Source: Deltaproteobacteria bacterium
GTDB lineage: Bacteria > Desulfobacterota > DSM-4660 > Desulfatiglandales > HGW-15
Length of the DNA stretch: 64,000 nt
Direction of reading: 5' to 3'
Assembly: GCA_016930835.1 (NCBI GenBank)
Contig: JAFGGA010000136.1
Coordinates: 8,960-72,959 of the forward strand
Shown: positions 2,618 to 60,134 of the stretch, one piece after another
Layout of the letters: each line of letters opens with the position of its first letter
Position numbering within the stretch: position 1 is the first letter of the stretch
Position numbers and translations under genes: made by a program
Notes under the pieces: model-generated
What the model was told of the DNA's origin: nothing
Seen by the model: only the letters and a program-made list of their open reading frames with translations
Database searches by the model: none

Positions 2618-5600
2618 ATGATCAATTTTATCCACCTCCATGTCCATTCTCATTTTTCCAAGGGCTGGGGCATAGGCTCCATTGAGGAACTCTGTCAATG
2701 CGCCCGGGCCTATCACATGGACCGGTTCGCCCTGACCGACACCAACGGCCTTTACGGACTGGTCTTCTTTGTTCAGAGCGCCATGGAGATGGGCATCAAG
2801 CCTATTGTGGGCAGTGAGATCGTATGCGACAATCACCGGGCCGTCCTGCTGGTGCGCGGCCATGAAGGGTATGCCAATCTCTGCCGGATTATATCCGACC
2901 GGCATTGCCATGAAGATTTCGACCTGATCCAATCGCTCAGACAGCGTCGCAATGGGCTCATCATCTTTTCCGACGACTTCCGTCTGCTCAAGGTCCTAAA
3001 GAAAGATGCCTTGGAAGATCTTTATGTGGAGATGTCGCCGGGTTACAGCATGCATTCCTGCTATGCATTCTCACGCGAGAGCGGCATCCCGCCCTTAGCC
3101 ACCAACCGGGTCTATCTGGTTCACAAAGATCAATGTCCGCTCCATCGAATACTCCGGGCCGTGGCCCTCAACAGCAAGCTGTCGCGTTTGACACCGAATG
3201 ACACGTGTAGGGAACATGGTTTTTTTAATTCTTCGCAGGCCATGATCGACCAGTTTCCCCATGCACCCCAAGCCATCCACAATACGGCTAAGGTGGCGGA
3301 CCAATGCATGATAAACTGGGATTTTAGCGGCGTCATCTTTCCGAGCTTTCAGGAGATGTCGGACAGGGAGGCCTTTGACCGTCTATATCAGGCCACGCTG
3401 GAAGGATGCAAGTGGCGGTACGGAGAGATCACCCCGGTTGTCCGGGAGCGCATAGATCATGAGATGCGGATCATCCGGGAAAAGAATTTTGCCCATTATT
3501 TTCTGGTGGTGGCCGATATCACGAAAAAGGCACAACGATCATGCGGAAGGGGGAGTGCCGCGGCGTCCATTGTTTCCTATGCCCTGGGCATCACCCACGT
3601 GGACCCCATCAAACATCATCTTTTTTTTGAACGGTTTTTAAATCCCGGACGGGTCGATCCTCCGGATATTGATGTGGACTTTGCATGGGATGAAAGAGAA
3701 CAGGTGATCGACTATGTTTTTGCACGGCATGGAAACCAACGGGCCGCCATGGTGGCCAACCATAACACCTATGGGGCCCGGTCGGCCGTTCGTGAGGTGG
3801 CCAAGGTTTTTGGCCTGACGGACGCGGAGATCGGTCGGGTGACCGACCGTATCGGATTCGGCTGGCGGCTAAAGAAGACCTGGAAAGAGCTGAAAACCCA
3901 TCCCAAGATGCGTGACGTGGAATTCAAAGAGCCATGGGATGATATCCTGGCCGCGGCCGTGCAACTGGAGGATCACCTGAATCATCTGTCCGTCCATTGC
4001 GGGGGCCTGGTGGTGGTGCCGGATGAGATACGCCGTTACTGCCCCGTGGAGATCTCCGCAAACGGGGCCCAGGTCCTTCAGTGGGAAAAGGATTCCGTGG
4101 AAGAGGCTGGCCTTGTCAAGATTGATATCCTGGGTAACCGCAGTTTGGCGGTCATTCGTGATGCATTGGCTTTGGTGGAAAAGAATTATGGTATTCGGAT
4201 CGATTACGCCACCTGGGACCCTATCCAGGACCCCGACACCGTGGAGATCTTTTATCAGGGTGATACATTCGGGGTGTTTTATTTTGAGAGCCCGGCCACC
4301 CGTCAGGTCCTGACCAAGGTAGCCAGCGGCCTGACCTTGGATACATACCGCACTCTGGATCATTTTCATCTCAACGTGGTGGTTACATCCATTATCCGTC
4401 CGGCGTCCAACCAGAGCATACGAACCTGGGTATCCAGACTCCACGGTCAGGCATGGGATGCCCCTCATCCCCTTTTACGCCCCGTGTTGGAAGAGACCCT
4501 GGGTGTCATGGTATTCCAGGAGCAATTGAGCCAGGCCGCCATCTGCATGGCTGGCTTTGACGCAGCCGAGGCCGATATGTTGCGCAAGGTGGTGAGCAAG
4601 AAGCACAGGGAGAAAAAGCTCAAGGATTTTCACACCCGGTTTATCAAGGGGGCCTCTGAGAGGGGGGTAACCACGGAGGTGATCGAAGATGTCTGGCAGA
4701 TGATGATGGGTTTTGACGGTTATAGTTTCTGCAAGCCCCATTCAGCCAGCTATACCCTGGTGGCCTACAAGTCAGCCTTTCTCCGGGCCCATTACCCGGC
4801 GGAATTTATGGCCTCGGTCATCTCAAACGGCGGCGGTTACTACTCCACCTTCGGTTATATATCCGAGGCAAAACGCATGGGTCTCCGTGTCCTTCCGCCG
4901 GACATCAATCTCAGTGAAGTCAAGTATATGGGTAAAGATCGCGACATCCGTGTGGGACTTATGCAGTTGAAAGAGCTTTCTCACGAGGCCAAGGAGGTCA
5001 TTGTGTTTGACCGTTCGCGAAACGGCCCATTCCTGTCCCTGGATGATTTTTTAAGGCGTATCGGACACCACATGCATTTTCAAGACGTCAGAATTTTAAT
5101 CAAGGCGGGCTGCTTTGATAGTATTAATCAGGGTATTGATCGGCCCGGCCTGGTGTGGAAGGCCCTGCGATTCTTTGACACCCATGCCCAAACCCTTCCC
5201 CCTCGCAGGTTATGTCGTAACGAAAAGCAGGTCATTCTCCAACAAAAGAATCAGGATCTTCGACCGAACGAGCAATGTCATGCATTGCAAGATCCGGAAT
5301 CCAGGCATGCAAAACCATTCCAAAAATATCTATTCAATTCTCATAAAGATTCGCCACCCATGGAGCCCCTTCCTTTTTTGTCGAACAACTTTCCATCCAT
5401 TTCTCCCTCATCCGGAGGGAAGAGCTCGTCACTTCTCCCCTCCCCCGGCGGGAGGAACGCGCCATTTCTCCCCTCCCCTAGCGGGAGGGGTTGGGAGAGG
5501 GGGTTGAATGAAAAACCCCCTTATCCCAAACACATCATGCTTAAGCACGAATCCGAGACCCTGGGTTTCATCCTTTCGATGCACCCTCTGGAGCTTTATC

Positions 5601-11471: not shown

Positions 11472-11837
11472 TTAATGCGTGGTTATTTCATTTTTTCCAT
11501 TTGTCACGGATAAACCTACAATATAATGACCTTTGAATTTACCACCGTCCGCTTTCGTGATGCGAGAAATCTCCGTATCCATTTGCATTACGGGACATGA
11601 CATGTCATCAGAATAATATTTACTGATAAAACGATTCCCGGTCCGGATCTTGTTTATCAGGGCAGAATCCTCTTTGATAATGATATTCATAGCCTCTGAA
11701 TCAATGTTCCATAGTTTGAATTGATAGGCAAACTCAAGACCATCGATAGAGAATTCGATGCTATGAAATTGAGGAGTTTGAGCCCGGGCATCAGGCATAC
11801 TCTCAAATGATTTGGATGATATGGCTAAATTTTCCAT
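11472..11837 (-). CDS. Hypothetical protein
   Basis: 121-aa ORF with no overlapping better ORF and an AT-rich upstream region. No family recognised. Confidence 0.5.
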   Translation of the reverse strand: MENLAISSKSFESMPDARAQTPQFHSIEFSIDGLEFAYQFKLWNIDSEAMNIIIKEDSALINKIRTGNRFISKYYSDDMSCPVMQMDTEISRITKADGGKFKGHYIVGLSVTNGKNEITTH

Positions 11838-12362: not shown

Positions 12363-12408
12363 TGAAAGCGCCTCAAAAGTTTTCCGGGAAACAAAATCCC
12401 CTAATGAT

Positions 12409-12513
12409 ATGAATCGAGACGAATGGGAATCTTTATGCGATAGGTGCGGAATTTGTTGCTTGCAGAAGATAGAAGATGCGGGTACAGGCAAAATTCGATC
12501 AACAATCGTATAG
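12409..12513 (+). pseudogene. N-terminal remnant of a YcgN/UPF0260-type cysteine-cluster protein
   Basis: Translates MNRDEWESLCDRCGICCLQKIEDAGTGKIRSTIV then stop. This matches the WESLCDGCG.CCL.K.ED..TGEI start of the YcgN family, which is normally about 150 aa. Confidence 0.5.
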
Positions 12514-12570
12514 GATTAAAGTTTTGCTCATCATATACCGATGACATAGTTGAAAAATAAAATTTTATTA

Positions 12571-12652
12571 TGCAAAAGGGCAAACCATCCGAAAGGTTGG
12601 GACGCAAAGCCTCCGGTCTAAGTCCTAAATAGGATAGGGTAGCGGGGTTGCA
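12571..12652 (+). promoter_or_regulatory. c-di-GMP-I (GEMM-I) riboswitch aptamer
   Basis: GGGCAAACCAUCCGAAAGGUUGGGACGCAAAGCCUCCGG...GUAGCGGGGUUGCA is near-identical in the conserved positions to the V. cholerae Vc2 aptamer (GGGCAAACC..GAAAG..GGGACGCAAAGCCUCCGG..UAGCGGGGUU). P1 is UGCAA/UUGCA. Confidence 0.85.
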
Positions 12653-12677
12653 ATGCTTAAGCGTATGCTGCATTTAG

Positions 12678-12712
12678 ACCCGCTTTCCTTTTAGGAAGCG
12701 GGTTTTCCTTTT
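12678..12712 (+). terminator. Intrinsic terminator (riboswitch expression platform)
   Basis: ACCCGCTTTCC / GGAAGCGGGT stem with TTTTA loop, followed by TTTCCTTTT. Lies 26 nt after the aptamer and 19 nt before the next start codon. Confidence 0.75.
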
Positions 12713-12730
12713 GTGGAAAGGAAGGCAAAC

Positions 12731-13021
12731 ATGAATATTGATTTTCTAGGAGGAATGCCACTACCACAGGCGATCGACATCAAGACCGAAAAGAATTCCG
12801 AACGTGAAGTCACACGATCTATAGAAGAATCCGGCAAAGGAAATGATCTAGGATTGAATGTTGAAAAGAAGACTGTTGTGGGAAAATCGGGTGTAAAAAA
12901 TAGAGCAAAAAAAGATAAGATAAATCATGATATTTACGACGTAAGGGGTGATTTATCACCAAAAAAGATCTTAGACGATGATACAGACGATCATCAAAAA
13001 CCGGTTCATGTTATCGTATAG
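12731..13021 (+). CDS. Hypothetical charged small protein (riboswitch-controlled)
   Basis: The ORF track starts at 12713 (GTG); the ATG at 12731 (MNIDFLGG...) has AGGAAGG upstream. No family recognised. Confidence 0.55.
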   Translation: MNIDFLGGMPLPQAIDIKTEKNSEREVTRSIEESGKGNDLGLNVEKKTVVGKSGVKNRAKKDKINHDIYDVRGDLSPKKILDDDTDDHQKPVHVIV

Positions 13022-13065
13022 GTTTGTTTTAATATAACCAATGGATTTGAGGAGGAATCAATAGC

Positions 13066-13599
13066 ATGGAGATAGGAAATAGTCTACAACAGAGCATTGC
13101 TGAAAGGTTTCTTTCAGGGGGTAATATGGGAGGCGAACAGACCGCTCGGGATGATCTACCCTTTATGAACTTACCAAAGGATGAGGCTGCAGTTATTGTT
13201 GATCTCTCATCAGACAATAAAGACCGCAGGGTTGAGTTAAAGGAAAAAGCCACTGAAATGCTGGCGGGACAGCAAAAAATGGGTGAATTTAAGGACAAAA
13301 AAGGCTTGGAAGAGACAACCGATCTTCAGATCGGACCTGATATCCGGTATGCTTTAAAAACCGATAATGTAAATTTTTTAAAGAGGATAAGCTGGGGACC
13401 TCTCACCGTTGCAGAGTATCGAGAGGTCAAACACAGAATCAGTGAAATCCAACGAACCCGCGCGATTAATCATAATATTTTGGAAGGAAAGATTATTGAT
13501 TTGGATGATAAGAGGGCAGAAAGGACGAGGCATCCGGTCAGTGCCGACAACAAGGGCATCACCAGATCTCCTCAAACGAGTCTGAGTATAGACGTTTAG
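13066..13599 (+). CDS. Hypothetical protein (second gene of the riboswitch unit)
   Basis: 177-aa ORF with a strong GAGGAGG SD about 10 nt upstream. No family recognised. Confidence 0.65.
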   Translation: MEIGNSLQQSIAERFLSGGNMGGEQTARDDLPFMNLPKDEAAVIVDLSSDNKDRRVELKEKATEMLAGQQKMGEFKDKKGLEETTDLQIGPDIRYALKTDNVNFLKRISWGPLTVAEYREVKHRISEIQRTRAINHNILEGKIIDLDDKRAERTRHPVSADNKGITRSPQTSLSIDV

Positions 13600-44181: not shown

Positions 44182-44607
44182 TTATAAATTCTTTAAATAG
44201 GTGCTTATGATCCTGTTGACGTTCTCATCCATATCGATAAAACGCACGCCAGCTCCTGAATAATTGGCAGCAGGGTCTTTGTAATTATCAATCACCTCTC
44301 CCTTGACGGGGATCTTTTCCGGACCCAGTTCCAACTCAAGATGAACCACCGTCCCAATCGGGAACGGCAGTCTTTTTTCAATAAAAAAGCCGTTCGTGCT
44401 GAGATTTTTCAATAAATGGAAGGAGGTTGAGTTTCCTGAGCGCTCCACAGCCCAGATTTGAATGTCGGACCGGGGGGATTTCCTTCTTTCCTCTTGAATG
44501 TGTTTATCATTGTCTTTCATGGCCATTACAATCCTTTTCTTTGCCTTCTCATTCCACGCGAAATCCGTCCGCCTCATACCGTAGTAGACATTTTCAGATA
44601 AACACAC
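44182..44607 (-). CDS. PilZ-domain protein (c-di-GMP receptor type)
   Basis: RRKSPR (RxxxR) followed by NLSTNGFF (D/NxSxxG). A start at M28 (44526) is possible. Confidence 0.8.
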   Translation of the reverse strand: MCLSENVYYGMRRTDFAWNEKAKKRIVMAMKDNDKHIQEERRKSPRSDIQIWAVERSGNSTSFHLLKNLSTNGFFIEKRLPFPIGTVVHLELELGPEKIPVKGEVIDNYKDPAANYSGAGVRFIDMDENVNRIISTYLKNL

Positions 44608-54845: not shown

Positions 54846-56222
54846 TTACTGCGCGGTCCTTCCCCCCGCCAATTGAGCAGCTTCGCTGTATGGGGCCGTG
54901 CTGACGGCGGATTGCCAGTACTGATTGGCCTTTGTTTTATCGTTTAATAATTCGGAATGAACATCGCCGATCTTGAGGTACATCATGGCCTGGAAACCTT
55001 TGTCCTGATTCAGGTTAATGGCCTTTTCATACTGCTGCTGGGCCAACGTGGCCAATTTTATTCTGTTACGATGTCCCTGCGGATAGTCCTTTCCGTAAAT
55101 ATAGCACAATTCGCCTTGATAGACCGTGGCCTCCAAGTTCTGCGGTTCATATTTTAACGCTCCCGCGACGGATTTATACGCCCCCTTAAAGTTACCCGCT
55201 GCATCATACGCCTTTCCATAATAGATATAAACGTCCGCTGAAGTGGGATTTTGACGCAAGATCCCTTCTAAGGTCACCAGAAGTTCCTTAAATTTAATCT
55301 CCCATTGAGCGTTTCCGGAAGTCCTGAGCTGCCTGATCGCTTCTACATTGGGATCCAGCCCCTGCAATTGGGCTCGTAATGTACTGACCGGCTGTTGGGT
55401 TTCAAGATCGGCTACCGGGGCCTTGTATTGTTGGATACTTTTAGAGGCCATTAGGACGCTCCTGACCATCTGGCCGTATTGGATGCTATCCGGGGATGAT
55501 TCTTCGATAATTCGACCTTTGGCAATGCTTTTACTGGCGTTCTCGATCTCAATCATACCTGTATCAATCTTTTCAACCTCTAAAATCTCTCCCGTCTTGG
55601 GATGTTTAATGGGGTCTCCTTCTCTATAAACAATAAATCGCATCCCGCTCTTAACGCCCACTTGTCGCCCGAGATCAATGGAAACCTCATTTGCATCTCT
55701 TTTAATAATATAACCTTCCAGAGGGAAATCTTTGATGATGATATCGGCCATCTGGATGACCAGGTCCTCAAGCCTTGTGGCTGTGCTGCTTCTAACGCTC
55801 TCAGCGGCGATGATGGAGGCACTTTCAACATCAATGATTCTGGCATTGGCTTCCATGGTATTTTGAAATTTTACAACGGAGCCGGATATGATAATCTTTA
55901 CTCCCAGTAGCTTGCCGACCTTCGCGGCACTATTCTGGTCCACCATACCGCTCATATGAAGACGTTGTTCTCCCAGGATCTTTTCCAGCAATCGTCGTTC
56001 CACCACATCAAAACGCCCATTTTTCACAAGGGCTGTGATGAGCCATTCAGCCACGACCTTCCCCATGTCCGATTCATTAAAGCCCTCACCCTGAGTTTCA
56101 AAATCGAGAATGGCTATCTTGGTCCTTTTGAACTCCGCATCTGCCGTTGCACAAAAGGTCAAGACAAAGATAAAAAGCAAGACTGCCAATAAGATTATTT
56201 TTTTCATAACTAGATACCTCAT
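54846..56222 (-). CDS. CsgG/LpoB-like periplasmic domain + TPR protein
   Basis: 458 aa. Signal peptide. IAILDFETQG...VVERRLLEKILGEQ...GVKIIISGSVVKF (CsgG-like fold pattern). Central beta-rich segment. C-terminal TPRs. Confidence 0.7.
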   Translation of the reverse strand: MRYLVMKKIILLAVLLFIFVLTFCATADAEFKRTKIAILDFETQGEGFNESDMGKVVAEWLITALVKNGRFDVVERRLLEKILGEQRLHMSGMVDQNSAAKVGKLLGVKIIISGSVVKFQNTMEANARIIDVESASIIAAESVRSSTATRLEDLVIQMADIIIKDFPLEGYIIKRDANEVSIDLGRQVGVKSGMRFIVYREGDPIKHPKTGEILEVEKIDTGMIEIENASKSIAKGRIIEESSPDSIQYGQMVRSVLMASKSIQQYKAPVADLETQQPVSTLRAQLQGLDPNVEAIRQLRTSGNAQWEIKFKELLVTLEGILRQNPTSADVYIYYGKAYDAAGNFKGAYKSVAGALKYEPQNLEATVYQGELCYIYGKDYPQGHRNRIKLATLAQQQYEKAINLNQDKGFQAMMYLKIGDVHSELLNDKTKANQYWQSAVSTAPYSEAAQLAGGRTAQ

Positions 56223-56322: not shown

Positions 56323-56865
56323 TTAGATGGATATCTGCTCCAGTAAGTTGTAACAGCCTTCCGGCGTATAAAAAGAGATATTTACTTGCTTTCCAAATGA
56401 AATAATATCACCATCATATAATATTTTTTTTTCATTAGGTGTTAATTTAACATCATTTACATAGGTTCCGTTTGTAGAATCAGCGTCAGTGATGTAATAG
56501 AATCCACTTTTGATATCCTTAGACACAAATGCGTGAAACTTGGATATCTCGGTACTATTAATAACCAGATCGCAATTGGAGGCACGTCCGATATTAATAT
56601 TCCCCGAAAAGGAATCGGTTCCTTTTTTGACCAACTTGAGTATTTTAGATGAAACAGTCCTCAGGAGGGTCTTTTTTATAAAGTTTTCAAGTTGATCAGG
56701 ATCAATCCTTTTGGTATTAAAACCGTGCTTAATCGTTTGCCCGTTACCTTGTTCCTTATTAAAGATCAGAAAAGGATGATTAAATCGTTTGACAAAATCG
56801 CTCTTGCTCAACTGCACCTGAAATTTTTTATAGTCTTGTAATGTCTCTTCTTTTTGGCTGGTCAT
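56323..56865 (-). CDS. FHA-domain protein
   Basis: 180 aa. IGRASNCDLVI...ISKFHAFV...ITDADSTNGTYVNDVKL. Confidence 0.88.
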   Translation of the reverse strand: MTSQKEETLQDYKKFQVQLSKSDFVKRFNHPFLIFNKEQGNGQTIKHGFNTKRIDPDQLENFIKKTLLRTVSSKILKLVKKGTDSFSGNINIGRASNCDLVINSTEISKFHAFVSKDIKSGFYYITDADSTNGTYVNDVKLTPNEKKILYDGDIISFGKQVNISFYTPEGCYNLLEQISI

Positions 56866-57027: not shown

Positions 57028-59235
57028 CTAGGCCAAACCATGGATGTTTTTGATCCGATTAACCATCTCTGAGAGCTCATTGGAGAGGTTTTCTAAAAAC
57101 ACCTTGGTGTTTGGTGTTTTTTTGCCATCAAAATTCGTCACCGTCCCTGCCACTTGAACGGTCACAAGAATACCGTTTATATCAAAGGGGTCTTTGTTGA
57201 TGAGTCTGAGATGCCTGCGCAGGGCCAATTTTGCCTCATCTGGTGTGGTCATGGGCAAAACAGCGACCAATTTGTTTTTCCCCAGAAGAGCAGCCATATC
57301 CGCACTTCGCAACTCGGATGTAAATCTCTGCAGCACGGACTCCAATAAGACATCATGGGTGATCGTCCCCTCCGGTGGTTTGGTTTTCGGTTTGGCGGAC
57401 ACAATTGAGAAAGATAATGTGGCGAAGGGGAGATCATAGCGCAAGGATCGGGATATTTCTTTATCCAGAAAAAACGCCAACCCGTCGGCATCCAATGCTT
57501 CATCAATTGACCATTTTTTCGCCTTTCGTTTTTGCCTATTCTCTTTTTGCTGGGCGATTTCATCAAGAATATTTTTCAGATCATTTTCATCGAGGCCTTT
57601 GGTTTGAACCTCATGACGAACCATTCTTAGGATATTCGTGAGTTCATCATTTTCACTAACGCTCTTCTCAAGAATCTGGAGTACGCTTAATTCGCCCGCC
57701 TCCCTCTTTAGCTCCGGCTCAGTCGTTGGTATGCGGCTCCACTTCTCTTTAATGGTTTCAAACAATTCATCCATTCGGCCGTTCAATCTCTCTTCCAGCC
57801 TCATGACAACTTCGTCTTTAATGTCCATTTTTTTCAGGCGCCCCAGGATTTGAGACTCAACACGGTTCATCACCTGTTGCAGATGCGCTTCACCTTCCAC
57901 ATTTTCTTCTTTAGCAATATCGAGCGTCAGTTTGGATCCGATCTTTTCCACATAATCCACCAGCAGTTCGGTCAATACCTTTTCATCACCGGCACCTTTC
58001 CGGATCTCAGCCGCCAAGAAAATCAGTTCAGCCGCTTGTACCGGATTGTTCTTCACTTCCTGTATCAATTCCAGTCCATCAAGACCCACTGTCTCCGCGC
58101 TTTGCTGGAGGATCTTGGATAACTCCTCACTCTGAATCTCGTTGGAAAGTTCCTGCACCAGTTTGAGATAATCAGCGAGCGGCATCCCCTCTTCGAGAAG
58201 GGCATCTTTGATTTTCGGCAAAAGCCGCTTAAGCTCATTGGGTTCAGGGATCAACCGTTTTAATATCTGGGCGAGGCGTACTGTTGAGATCTTACCGGAT
58301 TGATATTCAGTCTTTACCAGTTGGAGAATCACCTTGTCCGTAATCTCATTGGCCTTATCAAGAATTTCGGCCTCATTGGTATAGTCGATCCCCAAGGATT
58401 TCTGGATTTGAATACCTTTGATCAATTGCCGTTTCATGTCGAAAACGGCCTCAGCCAACGCCGGTAAATCTTCACTTCCTTGCCCGGAGAGATTTTTTTC
58501 CACTTCCTGTTCCAAGATGTTGAGCTGGTGAACAAGAATCGGGCCGTGGCTTCTATCCGGTACGCCATTTTGGTTATAGACTTTTAAATCCGCATCAATC
58601 ATCTGATCTGAGACGTTGATCGGGTTTGCCAGGACGCGCTCGACGGTCAATGTCTTTTCAAATTCTTCGGCGAGCACGCTTTCGAGGATCGAGTCCATGA
58701 ACAATTTTTTTGTCTTAGAAGAACCATCCGCGTCCCCCTCGATGGACATCTTTTTAAATGCCTCGCGCGAAATGATCTCCTCGTCGCTTGATACCTTTTT
58801 AAAGTAGACGTGATTGAGCTTAATATGGCCGACCCCCTTGGCCTCCAACGCCCTTTTCATGGCAACCACATTCGGATACTTTTTTAGCCCCGTAAATATT
58901 TCCACAAACGCAGCAAGTTCCTTTCGCTCAATACCTTGATAGAATGAGATGGATTGAATCTCGGTCTTTTTAAAATGGGCGACCATTTTACCGGTATTAA
59001 TGCGTTGGTCAACCGGTTCTTCATCTACAAAAAGCTGTTCCTGATTCATAATAAAGACAAGGGGGGAATGGGTCTTAAGGATCGTTTGGAGTATCGGTAA
59101 AAGTTCGTCAATGGCCTGAATACAGTAGGGATGATTGGCGTCATACATGGTTGAACGATTAAAAAGCAAAAGAAATGCACGGCCAAATATAAAAAGTTTT
59201 TGCGGATCGATTTTGGCTTCCGTCATGGCTTTCAC
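57028..59235 (-). CDS. Large cytoplasmic protein with coiled-coil middle and degenerate GGDEF-like C-terminal domain
   Basis: 735 aa. The C-terminal ~160 aa follow the GGDEF-domain pattern (FLDKEISRSLRYDLPFATLSFSI...LRSADMAALLGKNKLVAVLPMTTPDEA), but the GGDEF position reads GKNKL. 4-nt overlap with the upstream kinase gene. Confidence 0.6.
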   Translation of the reverse strand: MKAMTEAKIDPQKLFIFGRAFLLLFNRSTMYDANHPYCIQAIDELLPILQTILKTHSPLVFIMNQEQLFVDEEPVDQRINTGKMVAHFKKTEIQSISFYQGIERKELAAFVEIFTGLKKYPNVVAMKRALEAKGVGHIKLNHVYFKKVSSDEEIISREAFKKMSIEGDADGSSKTKKLFMDSILESVLAEEFEKTLTVERVLANPINVSDQMIDADLKVYNQNGVPDRSHGPILVHQLNILEQEVEKNLSGQGSEDLPALAEAVFDMKRQLIKGIQIQKSLGIDYTNEAEILDKANEITDKVILQLVKTEYQSGKISTVRLAQILKRLIPEPNELKRLLPKIKDALLEEGMPLADYLKLVQELSNEIQSEELSKILQQSAETVGLDGLELIQEVKNNPVQAAELIFLAAEIRKGAGDEKVLTELLVDYVEKIGSKLTLDIAKEENVEGEAHLQQVMNRVESQILGRLKKMDIKDEVVMRLEERLNGRMDELFETIKEKWSRIPTTEPELKREAGELSVLQILEKSVSENDELTNILRMVRHEVQTKGLDENDLKNILDEIAQQKENRQKRKAKKWSIDEALDADGLAFFLDKEISRSLRYDLPFATLSFSIVSAKPKTKPPEGTITHDVLLESVLQRFTSELRSADMAALLGKNKLVAVLPMTTPDEAKLALRRHLRLINKDPFDINGILVTVQVAGTVTNFDGKKTPNTKVFLENLSNELSEMVNRIKNIHGLA

Positions 59236-60134
59236 CTATCTTTTTTGGGGATGTGGCGGGCTTTATAATCTTCCAGACGCTCTAAAAATTCTCGACAAGA
59301 GGCAAATCGATTATTCGGATCAAACGATATGGCCTTCGAGACGATTTCATCCATCTCGGGATCCACCATTGGATTCATTTCAGAAGGCCTTTTCTGAAAT
59401 AGATGATCCTTTTTCTGCAATTTCAGCAATAAAAGTTCCATGGAATGCATTTTGGGTAATGGAAGATTGGCCACCAGCATTTCAAAAAGCATCACCCCGC
59501 TTGCATAGATATCCGCTCGGCCATCAACTTTTTCGTTTCGGATCTGTTCCGGGGGCATATAAATGGGTGTTCCCTGGATCATGGAGGACTCCTGGTCGAG
59601 ACCGTGTGAGACCTTTGCGATTCCGAAATCCAAAATAATGGGCCGTTTGGAATGGCTTTCAATCAAAACATTACCGGGTTTGATATCACGATGGATAATA
59701 TCTTGACTGTGGGCGTAATCAAGGGCATCAAGAACTTTGGACATGATCGAGATGCTCGCTCCAACAGGGAAAATCCGTCGGGTGGGTAATACATGTTTTT
59801 GGGCCGCTTCAATATGATGTGAAAGGGATCGTCCTTGTATCAGTTGCATGGCGAAGAATAAAAAGTCATCGGTTTCACCGACTTCATATATGGGTATGAT
59901 ATTAGGGTGTGAGAGTATGGCCGCGGCTTCCGCCTCCATCTGGAAGCGCTCCGCGGTTTCGGGTGTGATGAGGGATTTGGGTAAAATTTTTAACGCTATC
60001 TGACGTTTTAATGTCCGCTGAAAAGCAATAAACACAATAGCGGAGCCACCCCGGGCCAGTTCTTTTAAAATGGTGGCGGTACCGACTTCTTGGCCGATGA
60101 GATGCTCCAGATTCAAGTCTTCAAGAGATTTCAT
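59232..60134 (-). CDS. Soluble Ser/Thr protein kinase
   Basis: 300 aa. GGSAIVF, ALKIL, HRDIKPGN, DFGIAK, PPEQ. Confidence 0.9.
   Translation of the reverse strand: MKSLEDLNLEHLIGQEVGTATILKELARGGSAIVFIAFQRTLKRQIALKILPKSLITPETAERFQMEAEAAAILSHPNIIPIYEVGETDDFLFFAMQLIQGRSLSHHIEAAQKHVLPTRRIFPVGASISIMSKVLDALDYAHSQDIIHRDIKPGNVLIESHSKRPIILDFGIAKVSHGLDQESSMIQGTPIYMPPEQIRNEKVDGRADIYASGVMLFEMLVANLPLPKMHSMELLLLKLQKKDHLFQKRPSEMNPMVDPEMDEIVSKAISFDPNNRFASCREFLERLEDYKARHIPKKDR

Follow-up and report, generated by a model that had tools for sequence, protein, structure and literature searches.

The 64 000 nt stretch analysed here, called the window throughout, is part of contig JAFGGA010000136.1 of a deltaproteobacterial metagenome-assembled genome (MAG). 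It contains a class I cyclic di-GMP (c-di-GMP) riboswitch of the GEMM-I type, followed by an intrinsic terminator and two open reading frames (ORFs), here named ORF1 and ORF2. We conclude that these probably belong to a two-input unit, in which a promoter of the sigma-28 (FliA) type and a c-di-GMP OFF switch lie in series over ORF1 and ORF2, and that the two proteins would be made when sigma-28 is active and c-di-GMP is low. Class I riboswitches with terminator-based OFF logic are well known, and the RNA itself is ordinary. What appears to be new is the placement of the riboswitch in series with a sigma-28-type promoter and the nature of the cargo, namely a rare module of two orphan proteins whose links to the late flagellar regulon are circumstantial. 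The features of the unit are listed in Table 1.

Table 1. Features of the riboswitch unit, numbered from the first position of the window
Feature	Position	Strand	Basis or detail
Sigma-28 (FliA)-type promoter	12517-12544	+	-35 TAAAGTTT at 12517-12524, 12 nt spacer, -10 ACCGATGA at 12537-12544
c-di-GMP-I (GEMM-I) aptamer	12569-12655	+	RF01051 covariance-model match
Antiterminator 5' half (aptamer 3' strand)	12636-12646	+	AGGGUAGCGGG, pairing with terminator 5' arm
Intrinsic terminator	12676-12712	+	Stem 12676-12687 / 12694-12705, loop 12688-12693, U-tract to 12712
Antiterminator 3' half (terminator 5' arm)	12679-12689	+	CCCGCUUUCCU, pairing with aptamer 3' strand
ORF1, 96 aa hydrophilic protein of a very narrow family	12731-13021	+	Shine-Dalgarno sequence AAGGAAGG
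ORF2, 177 aa protein of an orphan family	13066-13599	+	Shine-Dalgarno sequence GAGGAGG

In the mechanism that we propose, the transcript would start at the sigma-28-type promoter, approximately 20 nt before the riboswitch. When c-di-GMP is low, the 3' strand of the aptamer would pair with the 5' arm of the terminator, and RNA polymerase would read past the antiterminator formed in this way into ORF1 and ORF2. When c-di-GMP is bound, the aptamer would keep its 3' strand, the terminator would fold and transcription would stop. The two small soluble proteins would then appear only with the late flagellar sigma factor active and c-di-GMP low.

A class I riboswitch that recurs upstream of ORF2 homologues

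When the whole window was scanned against Rfam 15, the only match at gathering score was the one to RF01051 (81.7 bits, E 1.5e-14), which covers 87 of 87 model positions without indels. The GEMM-I core that a first-pass annotation, made from the letters of the window, had placed at 12571-12652 lies inside this match, and the score is far above the gathering score of 35 bits.

Loci encoding ORF2 homologues (numbered with the prefix L) were drawn from species-representative genomes, metagenomes and public assemblies and were scanned with Rfam in the same way. RF01051 matches of 67-81 bits were found directly 5' of the ORF2 homologue in ten of them (L005, L009, L011, L013, L014, L019, L020, L021, L028 and L034). 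With the window included, the aptamer-terminator unit is present at 11 loci in about seven ORF2 clades, with protein identities down to 47% and unrelated flanking genes. The comparison with other genomes that the first-pass annotation had suggested for these genes has therefore returned the same riboswitch in different neighbourhoods. The riboswitch is absent from the loci of a subfamily of 131 aa proteins (L003, L004, L006, L012, L017 and L023) and also from L007/L026, L008, L018, L022, L030 and L032. A decayed c-di-GMP-I aptamer lies 5' of the ORF2 homologue in L015 (2927-2991) and L002 (approximately 2225-2290). That in L015 scores 28.1 bits, below the gathering score; its first (tetraloop) hairpin has been deleted, there is no terminator and the start codon follows directly 3'. 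These two cases represent either truncated variants or riboswitches on the way to being lost. No other RNA family was found 5' of the ORF2 genes that lack the riboswitch, except for the decayed GEMM-I aptamer in L015.

The structure of the aptamer is backed by covariation. In a ten-locus alignment (A2), 96% of cells were paired over P1, both hairpins and the terminator, compared with 34-55% in slid controls, and six pairs, located in P1, the tetraloop hairpin and the distal hairpin, have changed on both sides. P1 is formed by GCA (12572-12574) and UGC (12654-12656), and its variable pair is U-G, A-U or U-A depending on the locus. It closes the two hairpins by which the class is recognised, one of them capped by a GNRA tetraloop (GAAA; 12585-12600). 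A different P1 had been proposed previously (UGCAA/UUGCA), but this overlaps the 3' strand of P2 and the ligand-contacting C92, and covariation favours GCA/UGC.

The ligand-contacting nucleotides G20, A47 and C92 of Vc2, the GEMM-I structural reference from Vibrio cholerae, have equivalents at 12579, 12606 and 12651, which are invariant in alignment A2. We assume this correspondence from the Rfam alignment and the Vc2 sequence, and an alignment numbered from 12560 coincides with Vc2 numbering. In Vc2, G20 and C92 recognise the two guanines of c-di-GMP, while riboswitches for cyclic GMP-AMP (cGAMP; GEMM-Ib) have A at position 20 (PMC6140456). The window and all ten related loci have G at this position. 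Because G20, A47 and C92 are invariant and cGAMP riboswitches carry A20, the evidence points to selective recognition of c-di-GMP rather than cGAMP. The aptamer is a genuine, typical and intact class I c-di-GMP riboswitch, and it is predicted to respond to c-di-GMP.

A terminator complementary to the aptamer 3' strand

A terminator scan of the window identified a 12-pair stem that includes six G-C pairs and has a 6 nt loop, followed by UUUUCCUUUU; the same hairpin had been marked previously as 12678-12712. The complementarity between GCGGGG of the aptamer and CCCGC of the terminator, also suggested in the first-pass annotation, was confirmed and is longer, with 10 of 11 positions paired between AGGGUAGCGGG and CCCGCUUUCCU. 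The calculated energies are -18.0 kcal/mol for this antiterminator duplex and -17.5 kcal/mol for the terminator, and 12 of 300 shuffled arms paired equally well.

All of the riboswitch loci share one layout, namely the aptamer, a linker of 20-40 nt and a hairpin of the form ACCCGC(U)...loop...(A)GCGGGUUUU(UU). Within the terminator, the stem base (ACCCGC and GCGGGUUUU) is invariant, and the loop and distal stem vary. The invariant CCCGCU in the terminator 5' arm is complementary to an invariant AGCGGG in the aptamer 3' strand, and the direction in which this complementarity continues differs between clades. In the clade of the window, it is continued by AGGGU, which pairs with the distal arm, while in the clades of L005, L013, L020 and L034 UUGC of the aptamer pairs with GCAA located just 5' of CCCGC. 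Across the 11 loci, the antiterminator duplexes have energies of -15.5 to -22.1 kcal/mol and the competing terminators -16.1 to -20.8 kcal/mol, and the duplex is better than the mean for composition-shuffled arms in every case (11/11; z -1.1 to -4.6). The antiterminated fold is the unconstrained minimum free energy (MFE) fold of the leader in L005, L009, L011, L013, L020 and L028.

Past the aptamer, the leader has an intrinsic terminator, and the 5' arm of this terminator can alternatively pair with the 3' strand of the aptamer. This arrangement supports a switch that turns transcription off at high c-di-GMP, because the terminator does not overlap the aptamer but would compete for its 3' strand, and an aptamer stabilised by ligand would leave the terminator free to fold. 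The same polarity had been suggested in the first-pass annotation, and it fits a terminator that stands apart from the aptamer, 20-40 nt past it, and has an invariant arm able to pair back to the 3' strand of the aptamer.

In the centroid fold of the window leader, the terminator U-tract UUUUCCUUUU can pair with GGAAAGGAAGG in the Shine-Dalgarno region of ORF1 (12703-12727). This pairing is shared by L019 and might add a translational layer in read-through transcripts.

A sigma-28-type promoter motif conserved with the ORF2 family

The sigma-28/FliA consensus has been reported as TAAAGTTT-n11-GCCGATAA (PMC2859248), and elsewhere as a -35 TAAA with a -10 GCCGATAA (PMC8325347). The promoter motif in the window, which ends 25 nt 5' of the aptamer match, agrees with the consensus at all eight positions of the -35 element and at six of the eight -10 positions. 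A looser version of the pattern was present on the correct strand, 75-550 nt 5' of the ORF2 start, in 20 of 23 distinct loci, and the motif was also found in three further clades (L030, L032/L033 and L034). The background is approximately 0.06-0.13 hits per kb-strand, and approximately 0.13 overall even when the true sites are counted. Many of the motifs are perfect or nearly so, with GCCGATAA in L019, L005, L020, L028, L002 and L032.

The motif has been kept across about 14 clades of the ORF2 family, whether the riboswitch is present or not. Where there is a riboswitch, the distance from the end of the -10 element to the aptamer match is 15-32 nt, and where there is none the motif lies approximately 60-230 nt 5' of the start codon. 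It is therefore a feature of the gene family and not of the riboswitch. We read it as the promoter of the ORF2 family, which from its likeness to the consensus is predicted to depend on sigma-28 in vivo.

Flagellar genes next to ORF2 homologues

In four loci (L005, L009, L011 and L016), the gene directly downstream of the ORF2 homologue is flgM (PF04316, E 6e-10), and the JGI annotation of this neighbour is 'flagellar biosynthesis anti-sigma factor FlgM'. In L020, the corresponding position is occupied by flaG (PF03646, E 8e-23). The first-pass annotation, in which the two genes were put forward as candidates for a new c-di-GMP-controlled function, was correct about the riboswitch and the genes but had missed both the sigma-28-type promoter and these neighbours.

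The flgM gene lies 15-45 nt past the ORF2 homologue, with no promoter motif between them, in L005 (2320-3248), L009 (298-1142) and L011 (525-1453). Because of this short gap and the lack of an intervening motif, the riboswitch probably also gates sigma-28-driven transcription of flgM in this clade. The promoter and the flgM and flaG neighbours together suggest a late flagellar context for the family, which is a probable member of the late (class III-like) flagellar regulon. The organism represented by the window may share this link to flagella.

The L016 contig (1-2588) looks chimeric. Its ORF2 homologue, P0059, joins the N-terminus of one subfamily to a C-terminus identical to that of another, and its upstream region holds an unrelated antisense gene and no promoter motif.

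ORF1 and ORF2 are conserved genes of no known family

The positions and Shine-Dalgarno sequences of both ORFs are as first annotated. Neither ORF1 nor ORF2 belongs to a Pfam or NCBIfam family, and neither had a Pfam match at E <= 1. Both proteins were previously described as charged and without a signal peptide, and this agrees with their composition. The grand average of hydropathy is -0.84 for ORF1 and -0.74 for ORF2, charged residues make up 33-36% and the maximum hydropathy over 19 residues is approximately 0.5, with no signal peptide or transmembrane segment apparent from hydropathy in either.

Both genes are real. The ORF1 orthologues in L019 and L021, which are syntenic with the window, are also 96 aa and align without indels. 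The ratio of nonsynonymous to synonymous substitution rates (dN/dS) for ORF1 is 0.20-0.28, and the third codon position is the most variable, a pattern that is absent in shifted frames. Hardly any other relatives of ORF1 are detectable: a word-index search returned two clusters, to which L019, L021 and a fusion in L020 can be added. In this fusion (P0015, 238 aa; L020 535-1251), an ORF1-like sequence that lacks the C-terminal approximately 22 residues of ORF1 is joined in frame to an ORF2 homologue without the intergenic spacer, and flaG is the next gene. Because ORF1 and ORF2 form a single polypeptide in one genome, the fusion is an argument for joint action of the two proteins.

ORF2 has 60 homologues at E <= 0.01, all from MAGs or metagenomes assigned to Desulfobacterales, Thermodesulfobacteriota or 'Deltaproteobacteria', and the identical NCBI entry is 'MAG: hypothetical protein JW932_11730 [Deltaproteobacteria bacterium]'. 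When aligned, these proteins are variable in the N-terminal half and strongly conserved in a helical core at approximately residues 70-140 (MGEFKDKKGLEETTDLQIGPDIRYAL...WGPLTVAEYREV), with the pattern G-E-F-K-D-K-x-G-L-E-x-x-x-D-x-x-I-G-P-D-I-R-Y-A-L ... W-G-P-L-T-x-x-E-Y-R-E-V. When 1.84 billion representatives were searched exhaustively with a HMMER profile, only 38 clusters at 50% identity were recovered, none of them joined to a known domain or part of a larger or annotated protein, together with one weak match to an 820 aa repeat protein (E 1e-4). On the basis of the 60 homologues, the conserved core and the small number of clusters, the ORF2 family is real but rare.

AlphaFold2 predicted a disordered N-terminal half for ORF2 and a helical core with a confidence score (pLDDT) of approximately 90, made up of two short helices (approximately 91-97 and 102-109) and a long one (approximately 115-140). 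Foldseek returned no match to the model in the PDB. When PDB sequences were searched with the family profile, the only match was one of 29 residues to ribosomal protein uS5 (E 0.09), which we attribute to chance. Pfam and NCBIfam scans of 26 family members gave nothing consistent, and none of the c-di-GMP domains PilZ, GGDEF, EAL and HD-GYP was found in these proteins or in ORF1 and ORF2. When the alignments of ORF2 and ORF1 were compared by hhalign, they seemed to match, but we reject this match as an artefact because the fused P0015 belongs to alignment A1, and it does not show ORF1 to be a paralogue of the ORF2 N-terminus.

The ends of the proteins are also patterned. ORF2-family N-termini have the form M-x-I-[D/G/S]-x-x-L (13066-13086 in the window). 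The long forms of the family end hydrophobic-x-hydrophobic-x-V/A, as in SIDV, IDLRV, FSVTV, VDLVA and VEVAA (13585-13596 in the window), and some tails end LVA, VVA, LLA or VAA. The tail of ORF1 (13007-13018) is VHVIV/IHLVV, and in L034 an unrelated 96 aa protein downstream of the ORF2 homologue (2713-3003) ends SIVDLLA. It is speculation that these C-terminal tails are a degron or a partner-docking strand.

Neighbouring genes in the window

The first-pass annotation had viewed c-di-GMP signalling as a theme of the window, based on a PilZ protein and a degenerate GGDEF-like protein. The PilZ protein is encoded at 44182-44607 (-) and is a stand-alone protein of 141 aa (PF07238, E 2.4e-12). The second, of 735 aa (57028-59235 (-)), resembles GGDEF only below threshold (17.5 bits against 23.8, at residues 628-695). 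As the PilZ gene is 31 kb from the riboswitch and the GGDEF-like gene, 44 kb away, gives a sub-threshold match, the case for a local theme is weak.

The only match in the window with a flagellar flavour is also weak. A 458 aa lipoprotein encoded at 54846-56222 (-) resembles CsgG (E 5e-16), FlgO (E 2e-7) and FlgT_C (E 1e-5), and its neighbours at 56323-56865 (-), 57028-59235 (-) and 59232-60134 (-) encode an FHA protein, the GGDEF-like protein and a Ser/Thr kinase.

Closer to the riboswitch unit, a 121 aa ORF (11472-11837 (-)) has kept its position and orientation in L019 (3153-3518) and L021 (391-756). Its product is not a PilZ protein and has no match in Pfam or NCBIfam, making it another small orphan gene adjoining the unit. 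A CxxCxxCC (PF03692) gene found 5' of the unit in L019 and L021 is a pseudogene in the window (12365-12513). By comparison with L019 (3879-4331), a deletion of approximately 460 bp has taken the 3' two-thirds of this gene and the intergenic region, and its end coincides exactly with the sigma-28 -35 element. The surviving 5' part is without its original start and retains a 34 aa remnant ORF (12409-12513).

Alternative explanations

The observations that weigh against a sigma-28-driven, c-di-GMP-repressed unit with a flagellar role concern the promoter, the proteins and the switch. In the window itself, the -10 element is imperfect and the spacer is 12 nt, and the strict pattern occurs once on the two strands (128 kb-strand) where 0.55 occurrences are expected, which alone is not significant. 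A search for flagellar genes, which covered only the 64 kb of the MAG that make up the window, found none that was convincing. The adjacency of flgM or flaG is confined to two or three related clades, and most other ORF2 loci have unrelated metabolic neighbours. Factors of the sigma-28 clade that share this consensus control pili or sporulation in Actinobacteria, with type IV pilus genes as their targets in Rubrobacter and sporulation under their control in Streptomyces (PMC8325347). ORF2 itself is without similarity to any known fold in the PDB searches, and it is not a divergent FlgM: hhalign gave a probability of 0.2%, measured against a shallow FlgM alignment of seven sequences with 71-97% identity to the first, and FlgM was not among the Pfam matches of 26 family members at E <= 10. 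The motif might accordingly belong to another sigma-28-clade factor concerned with pili or development, as WhiG is in Actinobacteria, or be a conserved leader element, and the ORF2 family might be unrelated to flagella. We regard this as the most serious competing explanation, though an improbable one, as two blocks at a spacing of 11-12 nt and at a fixed distance from the aptamer or start codon have been kept in about 14 clades, and the neighbours that are informative are flaG and flgM, whose product is the anti-sigma-28 factor. It is even less likely that the unit is decaying in this genome and no longer regulates anything. The upstream deletion reaches the -35 element, the -10 is further from the consensus than that of L019, and the related loci L002 and L015 have a decayed aptamer (28 bits, first hairpin lost, no terminator). 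However, the aptamer in the window equals the best of the set, no damage is seen in the terminator, the two Shine-Dalgarno sequences or the two ORFs, and ORF1 and ORF2 are under purifying selection, and we give decay very little weight.

For the switch, the ligand-free MFE fold in the window, L019, L021 and L014 already has both aptamer and terminator, and the forced antiterminator fold lies 5.6-8.4 kcal/mol above it. A kinetic (co-transcriptional) decision would therefore be needed at these four loci. This, along with the existence of class I c-di-GMP riboswitches of both polarities and the possible pairing of the U-tract with the ORF1 Shine-Dalgarno region, leaves a small chance that the riboswitch is an ON switch or acts mainly on translation. 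The geometry is that of an OFF switch, in that the terminator is a separate downstream hairpin with a 5' arm able to pair with the 3' strand of the aptamer. The Shine-Dalgarno sequences are 25-100 nt past the terminator and lack complementarity to the aptamer. A ligand other than c-di-GMP, either 3',3'-cGAMP or another dinucleotide, would be GEMM-Ib-like behaviour as in Geobacter. The host belongs to the deltaproteobacterial type of MAG, the group in which GEMM-Ib riboswitches were found, and some natural variants are bispecific (PMC6140456), but the equivalent of Vc2 G20 is G in 11 of 11 loci, and we consider this very improbable. Finally, as more than half of the ORF2-family loci are without the riboswitch, the family is not defined by c-di-GMP control, which is recurrent in it but not universal.

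Possible role and comparison with known systems

A sigma-28-type promoter followed by a c-di-GMP OFF switch would make a compact two-input gate, in which the flagellar sigma factor permits expression and c-di-GMP vetoes it. The promoter, the riboswitch and the occasional flgM and flaG neighbours point to motility control in bacteria of the sulfate-reducer type, in which c-di-GMP and flagellar regulation have been poorly studied, and ORF1/ORF2 is a concrete candidate for a new c-di-GMP-controlled motility factor. The most likely role of the two proteins is that of a motility-associated regulator or accessory factor. A more specific proposal, which we make only tentatively, is that ORF2, with ORF1, is an unrecognised accessory or regulatory protein of the Desulfobacterota late flagellar regulon, gated by the presence of active sigma-28 and the absence of c-di-GMP. 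The N-terminal peptide, the disordered N-terminal half and the C-terminus would fit an unstable or exported reporter of flagellar assembly or second-messenger state. If this is true, ORF2 would be a new protein player in the decision between motile and sessile states.

The core of the aptamer is nearly identical to that of Vc2 (GGGCAAACC...GAAA...GGGACGCAAAGCCUCCGG...UAGCGGGGUU), and it has all three of G20, A47 and C92. The expression platform differs, as does the regulated gene, Vc2 being located upstream of tfoY/VC1722.

One of the two closest precedents is Cd1, the class I riboswitch 5' of the Clostridioides difficile flgB operon, a context also mentioned in bioRxiv 10.1101/256883. Cd1 reportedly (Sudarsan 2008; McKee 2013) consists of a GEMM-I aptamer and then an intrinsic terminator, turns transcription off at high c-di-GMP and has a motility-related output. 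The unit in the window shares the first of these features and is predicted to share the others. However, Cd1 controls an early flagellar operon that includes sigD and so stands above the flagellar sigma factor, whereas the riboswitch in the window stands below a sigma-28-type promoter and precedes genes for two small orphan proteins, joined in some relatives by flgM. The hosts also differ, Cd1 being from Firmicutes and the unit described here from Desulfobacterota-type MAGs.

The other precedent, a recently described family of C. difficile small proteins, is similar in that uncharacterised small proteins are repressed by c-di-GMP through premature termination at a riboswitch, as predicted here, and in that some paralogues in both families are independent of a riboswitch. 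The C. difficile proteins are membrane-associated and promote sporulation, whereas ORF1 and ORF2 are soluble and hydrophilic, are of no known family and are linked to sigma-28, flgM and flaG.

The sigma-28-dependent class III genes ycgR and pdeH of Escherichia coli, which couple flagella to c-di-GMP, resemble ORF1 and ORF2 in being small non-structural genes with a sigma-28 consensus promoter that join motility to this second messenger; mapping of the FliA regulon is covered in PMC4183435. The E. coli proteins themselves bind or degrade c-di-GMP. In the unit described here, the target of c-di-GMP would instead be the mRNA leader, and no c-di-GMP domain is recognisable in the proteins.

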